Counted from the stretch's first letter, positions 50,501 to 57,513 are shown. The stretch is DNA of 64,000 nucleotides from an uncultured Actinomycetes bacterium (GCA_963841195.1 CAWJBX010000009.1:94998-158997); one strand, 5' to 3'. Notes: generated by a model not told the origin, from the letters alone. A program made the numbers and translations.

Positions 50501-50916
50501 CAGAAATGGAGACCGTGCACGCCGACTTGTGGGCGATGGGCATCTCGGTTGGTCGGCATCCGACGGAGTTCGTGCGGGCCGAACTGCAACGCCAAGGTGT
50601 TGTCACGAGCGCCGATCTCCGGGACATTCCCGACCGCACCGTGGTCGAGGTCGCCGGTGTCGTCACACACCGCCAGCAACCGGCAACCGCCAAGGGCACC
50701 GTGTTCTTGAACCTCGAAGACGAAACCGGTCTCGTGAACGTGATCTGTTCCAAAGGCGTATGGAAACGCTTCCGCACTGTTGCACGCGGCGCGCCCGCGT
50801 TACGCGTGCGCGGTGTGCTCGAAAAGCATCAAGGCGTCACGAATTTGGTCGCGGGGCGGATAACGCGCCTGCCGATCAGCTTGGCCGACGCGCTCCGCTC
50901 CCGCGACTTTCATTGA
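47527..50916 (+). pseudogene. dnaE2: Error-prone DNA polymerase III alpha subunit DnaE2 (one frameshift near 50090)
   Basis: [45 protein letters not shown] (PHP domain) through PolIIIA core (DIDLDIEHQRREEVIQYVYERYG, GIHSGGMVMADRPLVEF) to the OB-fold tail in the frame of 50059..50916. Confidence 0.85.
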
Positions 50917-51793
50917 CGCGCCGGCGTGCCCCCGCCACGAGAGCAATACCGGCGAACAGGCTGATGAGGCCGATCGGAAGCGCCCCGGCGCCGCCCCCGG
51001 TGAACGGAAGCGATGAGGTCGTTGTCGATGTCGGCGGGACGGTCGAACCGAGCGGCGCGAGCGTGCTCGAAGACGAACTTGTGGGATTGCTCGTCGACGT
51101 TGACGACGACGAGGTCGAAGCAAAGATCGTCGACGGTGAGATCTCGATGCTCGTTGTCGACGTGCTCGTCGTCGACTGATCGAACTCGAACGTCGTCTCG
51201 GTCGTCGATGTCGAAGTACTCGTGCTCGTACTGGTCGACGTCGACGTACTTGACGTTGACGTGCTCGATGTCGAAGACGACGACGATGACGGACCGGTCG
51301 AGGTTGTGGTCGTCGCACCGCTTTCGCACGCGCAGAACTGTTTCGACGTCATCTGCACCGGCGCGTTCCCGTGCGGTGACGACATGAACTGTGCGAAGTG
51401 GGGCCCGGCCCATTTCACGCCTTGCAGCGTCACGAAGATCTCTTGGCCGGGTGCGAGCGCATACGTCGTGTGGACGGGGCTTCCCGGTTCGTCTTTGACG
51501 ATGAATGGAATCGCGGGCGCGCTGAGCTTGTCGCCTTGTGTGATCCAGAACGTGATCGTCGTCGGTCCGAGTTGTTTGTCGTTCGGATCGGAATGGTTGG
51601 TCCAGTTGAAGACGTCGAAGTCTGGGTTCGTCGCCTTGGGCGGACACAACTTGATCAAGTGAATGCGAGAACGGCCGGGCGGTGGGCTCGCGTCGGCAAT
51701 GCCGGCGAGGGAGAACACAGCAACGACGACCACTGCGCCCGTCAGCACAGCCGCGAGAACGCGACGACGGGCAAGCCCCTTCTGCCCCAACAT
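50876..51793 (-). CDS. LPXTG (LPFTG) cell-wall-anchored Ser/Thr-rich surface protein, family B (about 110-aa KLC...CxC N-domain)
   Basis: Signal peptide MLGQKGLARRRVLAAVLTGAVVVVAVFSLAGIADA; TS-rich linker including ETTFEF; C-terminal LPFTGGGAG plus hydrophobic stretch plus ARRR. Confidence 0.7.
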   Translation of the reverse strand: MLGQKGLARRRVLAAVLTGAVVVVAVFSLAGIADASPPPGRSRIHLIKLCPPKATNPDFDVFNWTNHSDPNDKQLGPTTITFWITQGDKLSAPAIPFIVKDEPGSPVHTTYALAPGQEIFVTLQGVKWAGPHFAQFMSSPHGNAPVQMTSKQFCACESGATTTTSTGPSSSSSSTSSTSTSSTSTSTSTSTSTSTSTTETTFEFDQSTTSTSTTSIEISPSTIFASTSSSSTSTSNPTSSSSSTLAPLGSTVPPTSTTTSSLPFTGGGAGALPIGLISLFAGIALVAGARRRVNESRGSGARRPS

Positions 51794-51880
51794 TCTTTGC
51801 CCCTCTACTTCAGCCCCGCAATCGGCAGCATGCCAGATCGCGAACGCAAAGCGGCGCAACGTCGAAGGGAATTTGCAATT

Positions 51881-51917
51881 GACTGCGCCCCTGGCAAATC
51901 AAACCAGGGGCGCAGTC
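51881..51917 (-). terminator. 14-bp perfect GC-rich hairpin between the two LPXTG genes (terminator or processing site candidate)
   Basis: GACTGCGCCCCTGG-caaatcaaa-CCAGGGGCGCAGTC. Confidence 0.4.
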
Positions 51918-51938
51918 ACACGTGCGACGGATTCGGCG

Positions 51939-53405
51939 CTACGCGCTGTGGGTGCGCACCGCCTTGCGCCGCCGCGACCCGATGAGGAGCGCGCCACCGG
52001 CGAGCAAGCTGATCAACGCGAACGGCACCGCGCCGCCGCCACCTCCGGTGAACGGCAGCGTTCCGTGGGCCACCGTGGTGGTCGAGCCGTTGGCGACGAT
52101 CGTCGACGTCGTTGCGACCGTCGAACCGGCCTCGGTGATCGTCGTCGTCGACTGCGGGATCGTGCTGGTCTCGTTTGCAGTCGTCGTCGACGTGACCGGG
52201 ATCGTCGTGGTCGACGTCGAGCCGGCCTCGGTGATCGTTGTCGTCGACTGCGGCATCGAGGTGCTCGTCGAAGTCGACGTGGTGCTCGAGTCGTTCGCAG
52301 TGGTTGTCGACGTGACCGGGATCGTCGTGGTCGATGACGTGACCGGGATCGTCGAAGTCGAAGTCGAAGACGTCGAAGTCGACGACGTGCTCGAGCTCGT
52401 GCTGCTGGACGAGGTCGAGGAGGACGAAGACGAACTCGACGACGAGTTGTTGCCGAACGTCGTCGACGTGGTCGTGGTCTCCTGCGGGCTGCTCACTTCG
52501 ACCGAGTGCTCGAGGTCGATGTGCTCGCCCCAGAGGTGACCGAGGATCGATGACGAACCCGAACCGCCCGAGCCGTAGTGGATACCCGTCGTCGGAGTGA
52601 CGATGTCGCCGACCCACGGGCCGGTGTCGACTTCGAAGCCATTCGTGTCACTCGGCGCCGGAATACCGGCAACTTCGGTGTACACGTCGCTCGGCACGTA
52701 GCCGGCCTGGTTGGTCGAAGTGATCTTGCCGAGCTCGACCTTGGCGCACACGAACAGGCGCATGCCCTTCGTGAAGTTGATGGTGACGCCACTGCCGAAG
52801 TCGATGTTGTCGACGTAGTAGTCGCCGGCGCCGTTGAAGTTCAGCGTCGACGTGCCACCGGCCTTGATGTCGCCCCAGTTACCCGGCGTCAAGGTGATCG
52901 TCGAGCTGTTGCCGTCGATGATGTCCGGCGTGTGGTTCGTCGCGCAGTACTGCGCCGCGTTCGGCCACTCCGTCGGGATGGGACCGCTCGGCAAGTCGAC
53001 GGCGGCCGCGTTGGCCACGTGATTGATCGTGCCGATCGTCGACGTGGCTTGCTTCGTCAACGTGCCCGCGTACGTGACCGTGCCGCTGATCCCCGTTTGG
53101 TTCTGCAAGTCAACGTCTTGCACGATGCGCGCGTCGCCGACGATGTGCGCGCCACCCGAGAGGTGCAACGCCTCACTCGGGTTCGGCGCCGGTGCGACGC
53201 GGTTGTTGACCGAACCGACGAGCCCGGTGACCGTGCTCTCGAATCCGATGTGCACGCTGTTCGTGCCGAACACTTCGTATTGGTCGTAGGTCGTCGTTGC
53301 CGACGCCGAACCGACCGTCACCGCGATCGTCGCCGCTGCAATCAACCCGCAGACCGCAAATGCGGCTACCGCGTTCCTACGTACACGGCCTCGTTGCCGT
53401 CCCAC
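51939..53405 (-). CDS. LPXTG (LPFTG) cell-wall-anchored Ser/Thr-rich surface protein, family A (about 280-aa beta-rich N-domain)
   Basis: GTG start after AAAGGGG; signal peptide; domain VFGTNSVHIGFESTVTGLVG...GAHIVGDARIV...; long TS linker; LPFTGGGGG plus hydrophobic stretch plus SRRRK. Confidence 0.7.
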   Translation of the reverse strand: MGRQRGRVRRNAVAAFAVCGLIAAATIAVTVGSASATTTYDQYEVFGTNSVHIGFESTVTGLVGSVNNRVAPAPNPSEALHLSGGAHIVGDARIVQDVDLQNQTGISGTVTYAGTLTKQATSTIGTINHVANAAAVDLPSGPIPTEWPNAAQYCATNHTPDIIDGNSSTITLTPGNWGDIKAGGTSTLNFNGAGDYYVDNIDFGSGVTINFTKGMRLFVCAKVELGKITSTNQAGYVPSDVYTEVAGIPAPSDTNGFEVDTGPWVGDIVTPTTGIHYGSGGSGSSSILGHLWGEHIDLEHSVEVSSPQETTTTSTTFGNNSSSSSSSSSSTSSSSTSSSTSSTSTSSTSTSTIPVTSSTTTIPVTSTTTANDSSTTSTSTSTSMPQSTTTITEAGSTSTTTIPVTSTTTANETSTIPQSTTTITEAGSTVATTSTIVANGSTTTVAHGTLPFTGGGGGAVPFALISLLAGGALLIGSRRRKAVRTHSA

Positions 53406-56513: not shown

Positions 56514-56702
56514 GAGCCTTGCGTCCTCCCTGTGAGATCAGGGCGGAACGACGAAGAACGCGGCGGTCAAGCAGCCGCTTCAGGATGCGCCGTGATTGAC
56601 CACGCGCGCGAGCCATGCTTTTTCGCCCCTCTGCCCCATGCACAGCACCCGCAGGTTGCCAGATTTGCCCTAATGAGTCAAACGGGATGTTCCCAGCGAA
56701 AC

Positions 56703-56727
56703 GGGCCGTCCCGGTCCGGGACGGCCC
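56703..56727 (-). terminator. Hairpin after the family-B gene ending in ETTFTF
   Basis: GGGCCGTCCCGG-acc-GGGACGGCCC immediately after the stop. Confidence 0.4.
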
Positions 56728-56737
56728 GCGGCCCTGG

Positions 56738-57388
56738 TCAGAAGGTGAAAGTGGTTTCGTCGGTCGTCGTCGTGGTCGATGTCGGCGCCGTCGAAGTGCT
56801 CGTCGAGCTGGACGTACTCGACGTGCTCGAACTCGACGTGCTTGTCGACGTCGAACTCGATGTCGACGTACTCGACGAGGTGGTCGTCTTGGGCGCCTTC
56901 GTCGTGGTCGTCCGCGGCGGCTTCGTCGTCGGAGGCGTTCCGTTCGGACTGCAGTTGCAGTACTCGTCGGTTTTCATCGCCGTCGGCACACCGTTCACGA
57001 CCACCGTGTAGAACACGTAGTACTTGTGGTCGGTCGGAATGTTCGACTTCCACGGCCACGTCGAGGGTGCCGTCCACGTCGTGTCGCCCGGCGGCAAGTT
57101 CATCGCCGCTGACACCAAGCCGTTCTTCGGAATGAAGTAGCGGTCGGCGATGACGACGTTGGTCAACGTCGTGCCCGTCAGGTTGTGAATGACGAACACC
57201 GGCGCGTACTTCTGCTTCGGGTCCGACTTACACAACTTTTCGAGCGTCACGTACTGCCGCCCCGGCGCCGACGCCTGGGCGAAGTTCGTGATCGCGACGA
57301 GCGCGGTGCCGATCAACGCGAGACCGGCAACGGCCGACAGCACACGACGCCGGCGAAGACCGGCGCGACGAAATTGCTTGAGTTCCAC
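56738..57388 (-). CDS. Secreted Ser/Thr-rich protein, family B paralog, no LPXTG; ends ...TTTDETTFTF*
   Basis: GTG after GGGGGG; signal peptide; KLC...CNC N-domain paralogous to 50876..51793; TS-rich tail. Confidence 0.65.
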   Translation of the reverse strand: MELKQFRRAGLRRRRVLSAVAGLALIGTALVAITNFAQASAPGRQYVTLEKLCKSDPKQKYAPVFVIHNLTGTTLTNVVIADRYFIPKNGLVSAAMNLPPGDTTWTAPSTWPWKSNIPTDHKYYVFYTVVVNGVPTAMKTDEYCNCSPNGTPPTTKPPRTTTTKAPKTTTSSSTSTSSSTSTSTSSSSTSSTSSSTSTSTAPTSTTTTTDETTFTF

Positions 57389-57513
57389 GAGTCTGCCCCC
57401 CACTCACTGCCCCTCGACTCGGTCCCGACATTTTGTGCGCAGCTGCACACTCTTCGCAAGTCGGGCGATCCGGGCACCGGCGTGACGCCGGGGTTCGGCG
57501 CGACAATCCGGGA

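Follow-up and report, generated by a model that had tools for sequence, protein, structure and literature searches.

One described system that invites comparison with the locus analysed here is that of the chaplins of Streptomyces, surface proteins tied to an ECF sigma factor, BldN, whose anti-sigma factor, RsbN, is a divergent membrane protein encoded beside the sigma gene (PMC4255298). Chaplins are represented by long forms, anchored by sortase, and by short forms, which are secreted, and free and anchored forms co-assemble; the domain they share is a 40-aa amyloid, and the short forms possess neither a Thr stalk nor a conserved tail. Another example is the sortase substrates with Ser/Thr stalks, built of a signal peptide, the stalk, an LPXTG motif, a hydrophobic stretch and basic residues. 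A third is the DUF3494 ice-binding proteins, the non-canonical members of which (Raymond 2024, PMC11645318) are missed by the Pfam model, many relatives ending in PEP-CTERM. DUF7305, a family without known function, also enters the comparison. Finally, in Escherichia coli, DegS senses outer-membrane proteins that remain unassembled by their YxF ends, resulting in sigma-E activation.

The locus belongs to an uncultured Actinomycetes bacterium and was analysed within a window of 64,000 nucleotides (GCA_963841195.1, CAWJBX010000009.1:94998-158997). Six ORFs, all on the minus strand, follow one another in the order B2, A2, ECF sigma, membrane protein, A1 and B1, and their coordinates, spanning 50876-57403, agree with the original prediction made from this DNA. 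With a confidence of about 55%, we interpret the locus as a conserved surface-protein cassette in which secreted, unanchored paralogues accompany sortase-anchored proteins under ECF control. Its features are as follows.

56738-57403, minus strand: B2, with a signal peptide, a Cys-bracketed B domain of ~110 aa, a Ser/Thr stalk and a DETTFTF-stop end, without an anchor
56741-56779, minus strand: codons of the B2 tail, STTTTTDETTFTF, for comparison with the A2 tail
56701-56729, minus strand: hairpin 9 nt after the B2 stop, 13-bp GC stem, -38.3 kcal/mol, z -3.7
56621-56665, minus strand: element upstream of A-short, TCTGGCAAC-N10-GCTGTGC ... GGGGCAGAGGGGCG, a putative promoter or leader
55443-56513, minus strand: A2 (the A-short gene), with a signal peptide, a 275-aa beta-solenoid A domain, a 45-aa Ser/Thr stalk and an EETTFTF-stop end
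55446-55484, minus strand: codons of the A2 tail, STTTTTEETTFTF, for comparison with the B2 tail
55397-55414, minus strand: terminator-like hairpin with a T run after A2, 7-bp stem
54371-55018, minus strand: SigE-like ECF sigma gene (Pfam Sigma70_r2, r4_2), likely true start ATG 54940
53555-54371, minus strand: single-pass membrane protein, start-stop coupled to the sigma gene (TGATG)
53457-53483, minus strand: candidate ECF promoter of A1, CAACGAACC-N9-GTGCACGTTGA (GTCAAC-N17-CGTTGA), conserved between flanks that diverge
51939-53405, minus strand: A1 (the A-long gene), with a signal peptide, the A domain, a Ser/Thr stalk of ~150 aa, and LPFTGG, a hydrophobic stretch and RRRK
51880-51918, minus strand: hairpin between A1 and B1, 16-bp stem, -46.2 kcal/mol, z -6.5
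50876-51793 (or 51859), minus strand: B1, with a signal peptide, the B domain, a Ser/Thr stalk, and LPFTGG, a hydrophobic stretch and RRR
51182-51199, minus strand: ETTFEF inside the B1 stalk

Anchored and unanchored A and B proteins

The beta-rich domain of about 280 aa that A1 and A2 were predicted to share is indeed common to both (275 aa at 50% identity). Its AlphaFold model (pLDDT 95) is a triangular beta-solenoid with a flanking helix, the predicted structure resembling that of the DUF3494 ice-binding proteins, and its structural neighbours also include the adhesin-like ComZ and the tapirins. The proteins here differ from DUF3494, however, in being actinobacterial and in occurring with LPXTG; no sequence match to PF11999 was found in A1, A2 or any of 15 aligned A-family members, and nothing points to a cold habitat or to ice binding for the A proteins. 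As to DUF7305 (PF23981), no match was found in A1 or A2 by Pfam search, while two distant relatives reach or approach its gathering score of 27 (P0032 with 29.4 bits, P0008 with 25.1), the matching region being the C-terminal half of the A domain. The family counts 124 representatives, some possessing LPXTG and some PEP-CTERM; that is, the A domain would be a surface module taking whichever anchor its host uses.

LPFTG is found at 52058 in A1 and at 51010 in B1, followed in the translations by AVPFALISLLAGGALLIGSRRRK and ALPIGLISLFAGIALVAGARRR, respectively, each a hydrophobic stretch and then basic residues, as had been predicted (LPFTGG, hydrophobic stretch, RRR). A1 and B1 are thus built like other LPXTG substrates with Ser/Thr stalks, from which A2 and B2 differ in lacking motif, membrane helix and basic tail alike. 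The LPXTG model TIGR01167 gave 12.3 bits for A1 against a cutoff of 15.9 and no match for B1, a weak failure for so short a model. The original prediction saw no sortase in the window, and a regular-expression search of its six frames for the sortase motif TLxTC, a weak test, found none. Among the ORFs of the window, only those of the A and B genes end in Ser/Thr-rich C-terminal tails.

Between B1 and B2 the similarity is only low, at 27% identity (E=0.01 in a pairwise comparison). The Cys-containing domain of about 110 aa described for the two has a skeleton, PGR-x5-KLC ... LxPG ... W ... CxC, also present in the B homologues encoded downstream of A-long in two related loci (L003 and L008). 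For B2, whose start codon may be either of two GTGs (57403 or 57388), a word-based search covering 5.8e9 proteins returned no homologue, and no short B gene was present in any related locus looked at, B2 being seen in the window only. The description of the locus as a duplicated two-gene module therefore fits this window and not its relatives, which consist of A-short, sigma, A-long and B. Even here, the A and B genes are arranged as mirror images (B-A ... A-B), and the locus cannot be described as a two-gene module copied in plain tandem.

Related cassettes, the sigma gene and its neighbor

The same cassette of A-short, ECF sigma, A-long with LPXTG, and B is encoded on independent metagenome contigs. 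In L003 and L014, an A-short gene ending in TTIRF is followed by sigma, an A-long gene with LPKTG and B; in L012, an A-short gene with the same end is followed by sigma and A-long. Two JGI contigs carry P0126 (ending in TTIRF) and P0127 (ending in TTIHT), each followed by sigma and then by a gene of 474 or 502 aa. The cassette with P0126 and that of the window both lie between Amidohydro_2 and DnaE2, and the contig with P0127 ends 1.4 kb upstream of A-short, with DnaE2 downstream. L008 encodes A-short (TTIPT), A-long (LPRTG) and B (LPQTG), without a sigma gene. At least five related contigs share with the window the position of A-short directly upstream of sigma. In one further genome, L001, the cassette has collapsed into one hybrid A gene, subsequently split by a prophage-like element, so that the system is dispensable.

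The sigma factor matches sigma-70 regions 2 and 4 only (PF04542, E=2.7e-14; PF08281, E=1.4e-16). It scores 80.1 bits with the ECF superfamily model TIGR02937 (cutoff 42.9), 136.9 bits with the SigE family model TIGR02983, just under the cutoff of 141.55, and 45 bits with the BldN model TIGR02952 (cutoff 206). It is 66% identical to the sigma factor of L003, versus 41-46% for the A domains, and is the best-conserved gene of the cassette.

The membrane protein encoded next to it had been taken for an anti-sigma factor, an identity that the analysis does not support. The protein consists of a cytoplasmic segment of only ~28 aa, one hydrophobic helix, a linker rich in G, N, P and T, and, at its C-terminus, a beta-sandwich-like domain of ~100 aa; no anti-sigma domain (e.g., zf-HC2, RsiW-type) was found in its N-terminal part with Pfam and NCBIfam, and its Pfam matches, BsuPI and DUF4352, are weak. 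The reading frame is split between two frames near 54040-54050. Besides the window, only L007 has the gene (its 3' end), which is missing from four of six related loci, namely L003, L012, L014 and, apparently, the JGI contig with P0126; in the first three, sigma is followed, after ~110 nt, by A-long. RsbN, too, is a divergent membrane protein encoded beside its sigma, and an anti-sigma role here is possible but unproven, while envelope-stress control of the locus is to be taken as an assumption.

The ECF promoter predicted before A1 stands insofar as four loci, namely the window, L003, L007 and L012, have conserved the candidate; it is absent upstream of A-long in L008, the locus without a sigma gene. 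The element upstream of A-short is common to the window, L001, L003 and L004. Hairpins had been predicted after the A2 and B2 stops, and GC-rich stems are present after both, that of A2 being the only canonical terminator match; hairpins also follow the A-short stops in L002, L003, L004 and L012.

The C-terminal tail of the short forms

The tails of A2 and B2 were originally described as one identical heptapeptide. ETTFTF is indeed found in both, and the residue before it differs (E in A2, D in B2). The last 13 codons of the two genes show 8 differences, 8/8 at third positions (P=2e-5), arguing for selection on the tail peptide. In independent assemblies, A-short genes end, after a Thr-rich stalk, in TTIRF, TTFNF, TTIHT or STFRT, giving the consensus T-T-[F/I]-x-[F/T], and looser ends, TLPDT (P0008) and TTIPT (L008), also occur. 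The original prediction depended on homologues ending in this way, and these independent genes do. The short-form tail is thus real and under selection; given its loose conservation across lineages, constraint outside this genome may be weak.

The assembly of the window is rich in indels, with dozens of 1-nt insertions in flanking genes compared to L001 and a frameshift in the membrane-protein gene, and the stops could on this account be sequencing or assembly errors. This explanation is effectively refuted: the same stop position, with TTC TGA, recurs in A2, B2 and the A-short genes of the independent assemblies L002, L003 and L012, the Ser/Thr reading frame is unbroken up to the stop, and the hairpins come after the stops.

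Could the short forms instead be decayed copies, the tail being what a nonsense mutation left, in degenerate form, of LPXTG or of the first unit of the stalk, kept by descent only? The end of P0008, TLPDT-stop, is an LPXT in which the Gly codon is replaced by TGA, and the x residue of the tail matches the partner motif, both in the window (TTFTF with LPFTG) and in L003 (TTIRF and TTIHT with LPKTG). TTC TGA CCA of A2 and B2 also resembles TTC GAT CAG (FDQ) following ETTFEF in B1, a hexapeptide that lies, as predicted, inside B1 and before its LPFTG. However, the short forms have kept intact, well-conserved A domains and possess terminators and an upstream element of their own, the tails have diverged at third positions only, a sign that selection continues, and a possible LPFT relic on the downstream side of A2 lacks significance (5/300 shuffles, before correcting for 15 tests). 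We thus consider decay distinctly unlikely. A related point is that T-T-hydrophobic-x-x units, those of the T-T-I-x-x kind included, occur at intervals along the long-form stalks as well, and the tail may simply be where the stalk ends.

A dedicated C-terminal tag, with an enzyme or receptor reading T-T-Phi-x-F-COOH and sorting, cleaving, glycosylating or attaching A2 and B2, would account for one 13-residue tail being shared by two non-homologous proteins and maintained as a peptide, and for similar ends on A-short genes of several lineages. It also agrees with a crude neighbor-joining tree in which, for the window and for L008, the short and long A forms of one genome form a group, a grouping that suggests either repeated origin or concerted evolution sparing the tails. 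To our knowledge, every sortase, exosortase, archaeosortase or rhombosortase signal includes a membrane helix and a basic tail, and such a tag would have to function with neither. In addition, no candidate enzyme is encoded within 10 kb in the window, in L001 or on the contig with P0126, the last residue is not conserved, being F or T, and no ETTFTF-type tail was found outside the A/B family within 141 kb of DNA scanned. Such a tag is decidedly improbable. What remains of the functional tag originally proposed is that the short ends are genuine, conserved and selected as a peptide, while nothing supports a sorting, processing or glycosylation signal; the tail as a new sorting signal or dedicated tag is unproven.

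A further alternative is a signalling ligand, in which a PDZ protease, or else the membrane protein adjacent to sigma, would recognize Phi-x-Phi-COOH; export of the short form would in this way turn on the ECF sigma and lead to expression of the anchored form. The Phi-x-Phi C-terminus, a PDZ-type pattern, is found in A2, B2, P0009, P0010, L012 and P0126, and the ends FTF, FNF and IRF are of the form expected of class II PDZ ligands; the position of A-short next to sigma and, in the window, the coupled single-pass membrane protein with its outer domain agree with this scheme. The aromatic-x-aromatic free C-terminus on exported, ECF-linked proteins is also what A2 and B2 have in common with the outer-membrane proteins sensed by DegS. 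However, the pattern is missing in P0127 and P0128 (IHT), P0005 (FRT) and L008 (IPT), and P0127 and P0128 are sigma-linked, their IHT ends making poor PDZ ligands. The membrane protein is missing from most cassettes, no PDZ or HtrA gene is present in the annotated surroundings, and, unlike in the DegS system, the host is a monoderm and the terminal residue varies among orthologues. A ligand is therefore highly unlikely.

Free and anchored forms under probable ECF control

The preferred reading remains that of a cassette producing free and anchored forms of related surface proteins. A1, by what LPXTG signals do, would be covalently fixed to the wall, and A2, lacking a means of anchoring, would be released or only loosely held. 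The sigma factor would transcribe the long form from the GTCAAC-N17-CGTTGA promoter, and, as a conserved upstream element and a terminator are both private to A-short, the free and anchored forms are probably regulated separately. The tail, T-T-[F/I]-x-[F/T], would be kept by selection because it caps the stalk at the C-terminus, most likely serving as an end-piece or small hydrophobic contact for non-covalent association of the free form with the anchored layer, and not a transpeptidase signal; the binding of short to long form is here purely what we infer.

The logic would be like that of the long and short chaplins under BldN. As with chaplins, forms with and without a sortase signal (A1 and A2) are encoded in the same genome, and an ECF sigma is tied to surface proteins. 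The differences are that the domain here is an unrelated 275-aa beta-solenoid, without a chaplin match in Pfam, that the sigma factor falls outside the BldN type, that A2 and B2 possess the Thr stalk and the conserved tail that short chaplins lack, and that co-assembly of free and anchored forms is here at most putative.

It is rather unlikely that T-T-[F/I]-x-F-COOH on a Thr stalk represents a new C-terminal signal of monoderms functioning without a membrane anchor, be it a tag or a ligand. If it does, a wall enzyme would read it as a tag for retention or processing, or else it would be an extracellular ligand, whose appearance outside the cell would switch on the neighboring ECF sigma and hence the anchored paralogues.

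The surface-protein locus and its assembly

All six minus-strand genes of the locus lie where the original prediction had placed them, as borne out by the ORF listing and by the raw sequence.

50876-51793, minus strand: B1, 305 aa
51939-53405, minus strand: A1, 488 aa
53555-54371, minus strand: membrane protein, start overlapping the sigma stop (TGATG)
54371-55018, minus strand: ECF sigma factor (Pfam Sigma70_r2 and r4_2)
55443-56513, minus strand: A2, 356 aa
56738-57403, minus strand: B2, 221 aa

The sigma protein matches TIGR02937 with 80 bits (cutoff 42.9), and it scores 136.9 with the SigE-family model TIGR02983, below the cutoff of 141.55. 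The A domains of A1 and A2 are 50% identical over 275 aa, while the B domains of B1 and B2 are only weakly alike (27% identity, E=0.01); their PGR-x5-KLC ... CxC frame is common to two more B proteins on other contigs. Of the duplicated two-gene module proposed for this locus, the paralogous A and B pairs stand, but a plain tandem duplication does not, because the gene order is B-A ... A-B. The termini are also as described: A1 and B1 close with LPFTGG, a hydrophobic stretch and RRR, A2 ends in EETTFTF and B2 in DETTFTF, each with TGA next, B1 carries an internal ETTFEF (51182-51199), and strong hairpins lie 3' of the A2 and B2 stops. Another strong hairpin is found 3' of the A1 stop. No sortase was seen within the 64-kb window when six frames were scanned for the TLxTC motif, which is a weak test, and a look-up of the exact A2, B1 and B2 sequences in the protein collection returned none of them.

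The window shares ~85% nucleotide identity with L001, a fragment of the related genome GCA_037025025.1, in which the neighbouring genes are intact; in the window they are disrupted by single-base insertions, dozens in number and not in homopolymers, and an alignment of the two sequences has 61 gap openings in 4.2 kb. The broken housekeeping genes, at 57433-64000 and 46989-50916, encode Amidohydro_2, PilZ, MgtE, PhoU/TrkA, rhomboid, P-type ATPase and DnaE2, and they reflect either an indel-rich assembly or genes in decay. Near 54040-54050 (sequence context GGCGGGCATG) the reading frame of the membrane-protein gene shifts, most simply through the same kind of error. A1, A2, B1 and B2 have no such breaks and run collinear with their homologues.

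Short C-termini and a selected tail

The A family came to light through a profile search run exhaustively over 1.84 billion representative proteins, not through word-based searches: a word-based search with A2 found A1 and one truncated protein and nothing else, the same search with B2 found no homologue, and a fused A+B profile gave six A matches and no B match. The 124 A-domain relatives end in different ways. Some carry LPXTG signals (P0003, P0007, P0011, P0027), at least 20 end in PEP-CTERM, others are long multi-domain proteins, and one class, from actinobacteria, is made up of short, anchor-less proteins with a stalk rich in Thr, which end in TTTFNF (P0009), TTTIRF (P0010), TSTFRT (P0005) or TTLPDT (P0008). 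Later searches added STTIRF (the related locus L012, and P0126), STTIHT (P0127 and P0128) and TTIPT (locus L008), and the consensus of the anchor-less ends is T-T-[F/I]-x-[F/T]-COOH. The stops of all these proteins fall inside their contigs, and folding of the downstream RNA, done for loci L002, L003, L004 and L012, shows long GC hairpins after the stops of the anchor-less A genes. That the short ends arose through sequencing error can be set aside: the window is indel-rich, yet independently assembled relatives have equivalent stops, so the stops are real and an assembly artefact is hardly credible.

Over their final 13 codons (STTTTT[E/D]ETTFTF), A2 and B2 differ at eight bases, all eight in third position (P=2e-5 for random placement). 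The identity of the two tails is therefore neither a recent copy nor chance, and the peptide is under selection. Recent gene conversion, considered as a source of the identical tails, is ruled out by the eight synonymous differences in 13 codons. Over 128 nt the A2 and B2 DNA is 73% identical, the level found between any two Ser/Thr stalks.

It is unlikely that the tail is a decaying LPXTG remnant. P0008 ends in LPDT-stop, and in two lineages the x residue of the tail equals the x of the partner's LPxTG, both of which would fit such an origin, but the domains of the anchor-less A proteins are intact, the genes have separate terminators, and the tail differences follow a third-position-only pattern. 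A candidate LPFT relic 300 nt downstream of A2, taken up as possible proof of truncation, proved not significant (Smith-Waterman score 44 against 28.7 ± 4.8 for shuffles, with 5 of 300 shuffles reaching 44 and 15 comparisons made), and DNA alignment gave this relic no support. The stretch in question (55028-55130) reads ...ATLPFTPSGLSAEIGLGRSCLLASGIPALGRPRPNTHT-stop, with a faint, non-significant likeness to an LPFTG sorting signal. The spacer between A2 and the sigma gene is ~350 nt longer in the window than in relatives.

LPXTG, PEP-CTERM and similar signals depend on a membrane helix plus a basic tail, which keep the substrate in place for the transpeptidase. The A2/B2 tail has neither, so it cannot act in their manner, and a true tag would have to be read by machinery of another kind than those known, which we consider improbable. 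It is very doubtful that the tail is a ligand of the PDZ type with input into the ECF pathway, as orthologues end in ...IHT and the membrane protein is missing from most cassettes.

The tail was found on no other ORF in 141 kb of sequence (window and related loci). An ORF at 40140-41351 (plus strand; 403 aa, lipoprotein-like, by eye of a beta-propeller type) ends in DEEETFVFGL; it has no TTFxF end, and it is not counted as a tail carrier because it lacks a Ser/Thr-rich stalk. Ser/Thr stalks are common in the organism; at 37991-39193 (minus strand) an exported, anchor-less protein of 400 aa has a long internal one joining two domains.

A cassette with its own sigma gene

Related loci repeat much of this arrangement. 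One example is L003 and L014, from one organism, with an A gene of the short type (A-short), an ECF sigma gene, a terminator, a promoter, an A gene of the anchored type (A-long, LPKTG) and a B gene. L012 has A-short, sigma and A-long, and two JGI contigs have A-short, sigma and a gene of 474 or 502 aa, presumably A-long. On the P0126 contig, exactly as here, the cassette is flanked by Amidohydro_2 and DnaE2; the P0127 contig runs out 1.4 kb upstream of A-short, and DnaE2 is seen on the downstream side only. L008 encodes A-short, A-long (LPRTG) and B (LPQTG) and has no sigma gene. The best-conserved part is the sigma factor (66% identity between window and L003, against 41-46% for the A domains). 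Besides the window, only L007 has the membrane protein 3' of sigma, to judge from the 3' end of its gene, and no counterpart of B2 was found in any related locus examined.

Another case is L001, where the cassette has collapsed to one A gene whose upstream region and signal peptide are of the A2 type and whose body and LPFTG anchor are of the A1 type. Recombination between the two paralogues would produce such a hybrid, and we infer that the sigma region was deleted by this route. An ~8.5-kb element interrupts the gene (in L001 10001-20081) near residue 225; the element encodes a large serine recombinase, AAA_25 and a phage capsid protein, and of B just a remnant follows. A profile search of genome contigs with the A profile returned a single locus, where a solitary LPVTG gene adjoins a PilT-like one. 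In another actinobacterial lineage (L006, L010, L011) a lone A-long (LPVTG) lies just 3' of genes for a PilT-like ATPase and pilin-like proteins, a neighbourhood that recalls the structural likeness of the A domain to the pilus-associated ComZ and tapirin.

The promoter candidate proposed before A1 (53457-53483, CAACGAACC-N9-GTGCACGTTGA) has near-identical counterparts in front of A-long in L007, L012 and L003, where the flanks have diverged. It has an AAC ... CGT layout with a 17-nt spacer, which is typical of ECF promoters. In the sigma-less L008 this site does not precede A-long, and a TTGACA-like hexamer stands in its place. This co-occurrence of gene and site is indirect evidence that the sigma factor may drive A-long. 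The A-short genes share another upstream element, TG(G/C/T)CAA(C/T)-N10-GCTGTGC, and a consensus scan found no sigma-70-type promoter. The sole other match to CAAC-N15-19-ACGTTGA in the window (43332-43360, minus strand) lies in an error-rich stretch with no clear gene 3' of it. Upstream of A2 (56560-56620), an RBS-like AGAGGGGCG precedes an ATG opening 'MARARGQSRR'; this ORF resembles the N-terminus of an A protein but lies in a different frame from A2, and its peptide is not conserved in L001; it probably represents a leader or what remains of an earlier start.

Protein families and the meaning of the cassette

The A domain is an ice-binding-like beta-solenoid, a general surface module that carries LPXTG in actinobacteria and PEP-CTERM elsewhere. 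It has no Pfam family of its own, although distant members touch DUF7305, and the DUF3494 model gives no sequence match to A proteins; the family may overlap or adjoin the 'non-canonical DUF3494' proteins described in 2024, which Pfam misses and which mostly end in PEP-CTERM (PMC11645318). A first structure prediction, from two sequences, was uninformative (pLDDT 49). B has no Pfam family whatever and no curated-family match, the outer domain of the membrane protein has weak BsuPI and DUF4352 matches only, and PDB sequence searches returned nothing for either. The N-termini of A1, A2, B1 and B2, and of A and B proteins of L003, L008, P0003 and P0005, share (R/K)G-x-[VILA]-R-R-x-[VIL] before the hydrophobic core, which could be a twin-arginine-like export motif common to the non-homologous A and B; an NCBIfam scan gave no match to the TAT model.

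The sequence itself shows paralogues that have a sortase signal and others that lack one, a conserved sigma gene between them, a conserved ECF-type site before A-long, separate terminators and a selected tail. A similar design is known from the chaplins, in which a wall-anchored base and free paralogues stand under a private ECF sigma factor (PMC4255298), although the cassette fold is unrelated to theirs. By this analogy we favour, at a probability of about 0.55, a model in which anchored and free forms share the work: the long forms would be fixed to the wall by a sortase encoded outside the window, the short forms would be exported and then free or loosely bound, the sigma factor would control the anchored forms, and the tail would serve as a small hydrophobic end-piece of a hydrophilic stalk. 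Of the original interpretation, a functional tail holds in the sense of being selected, while 'alternative sorting signal', 'anti-sigma' and 'envelope stress' are unproven.

The building blocks (sortase substrates, ECF sigma, the ice-binding-like beta-solenoid) are already known; in the libraries and literature searched, no description was found of the cassette, the B family or the anchor-less conserved tail. The practical weight is limited, as the lineage has not been cultured, is seldom met in databases and can lose the cassette. If the model is true, it would be a second case of the chaplin design, on an unrelated fold. It also defines an unannotated protein family, and the tail is a small feature open to clean testing for an anchor-less C-terminal signal in monoderm bacteria.
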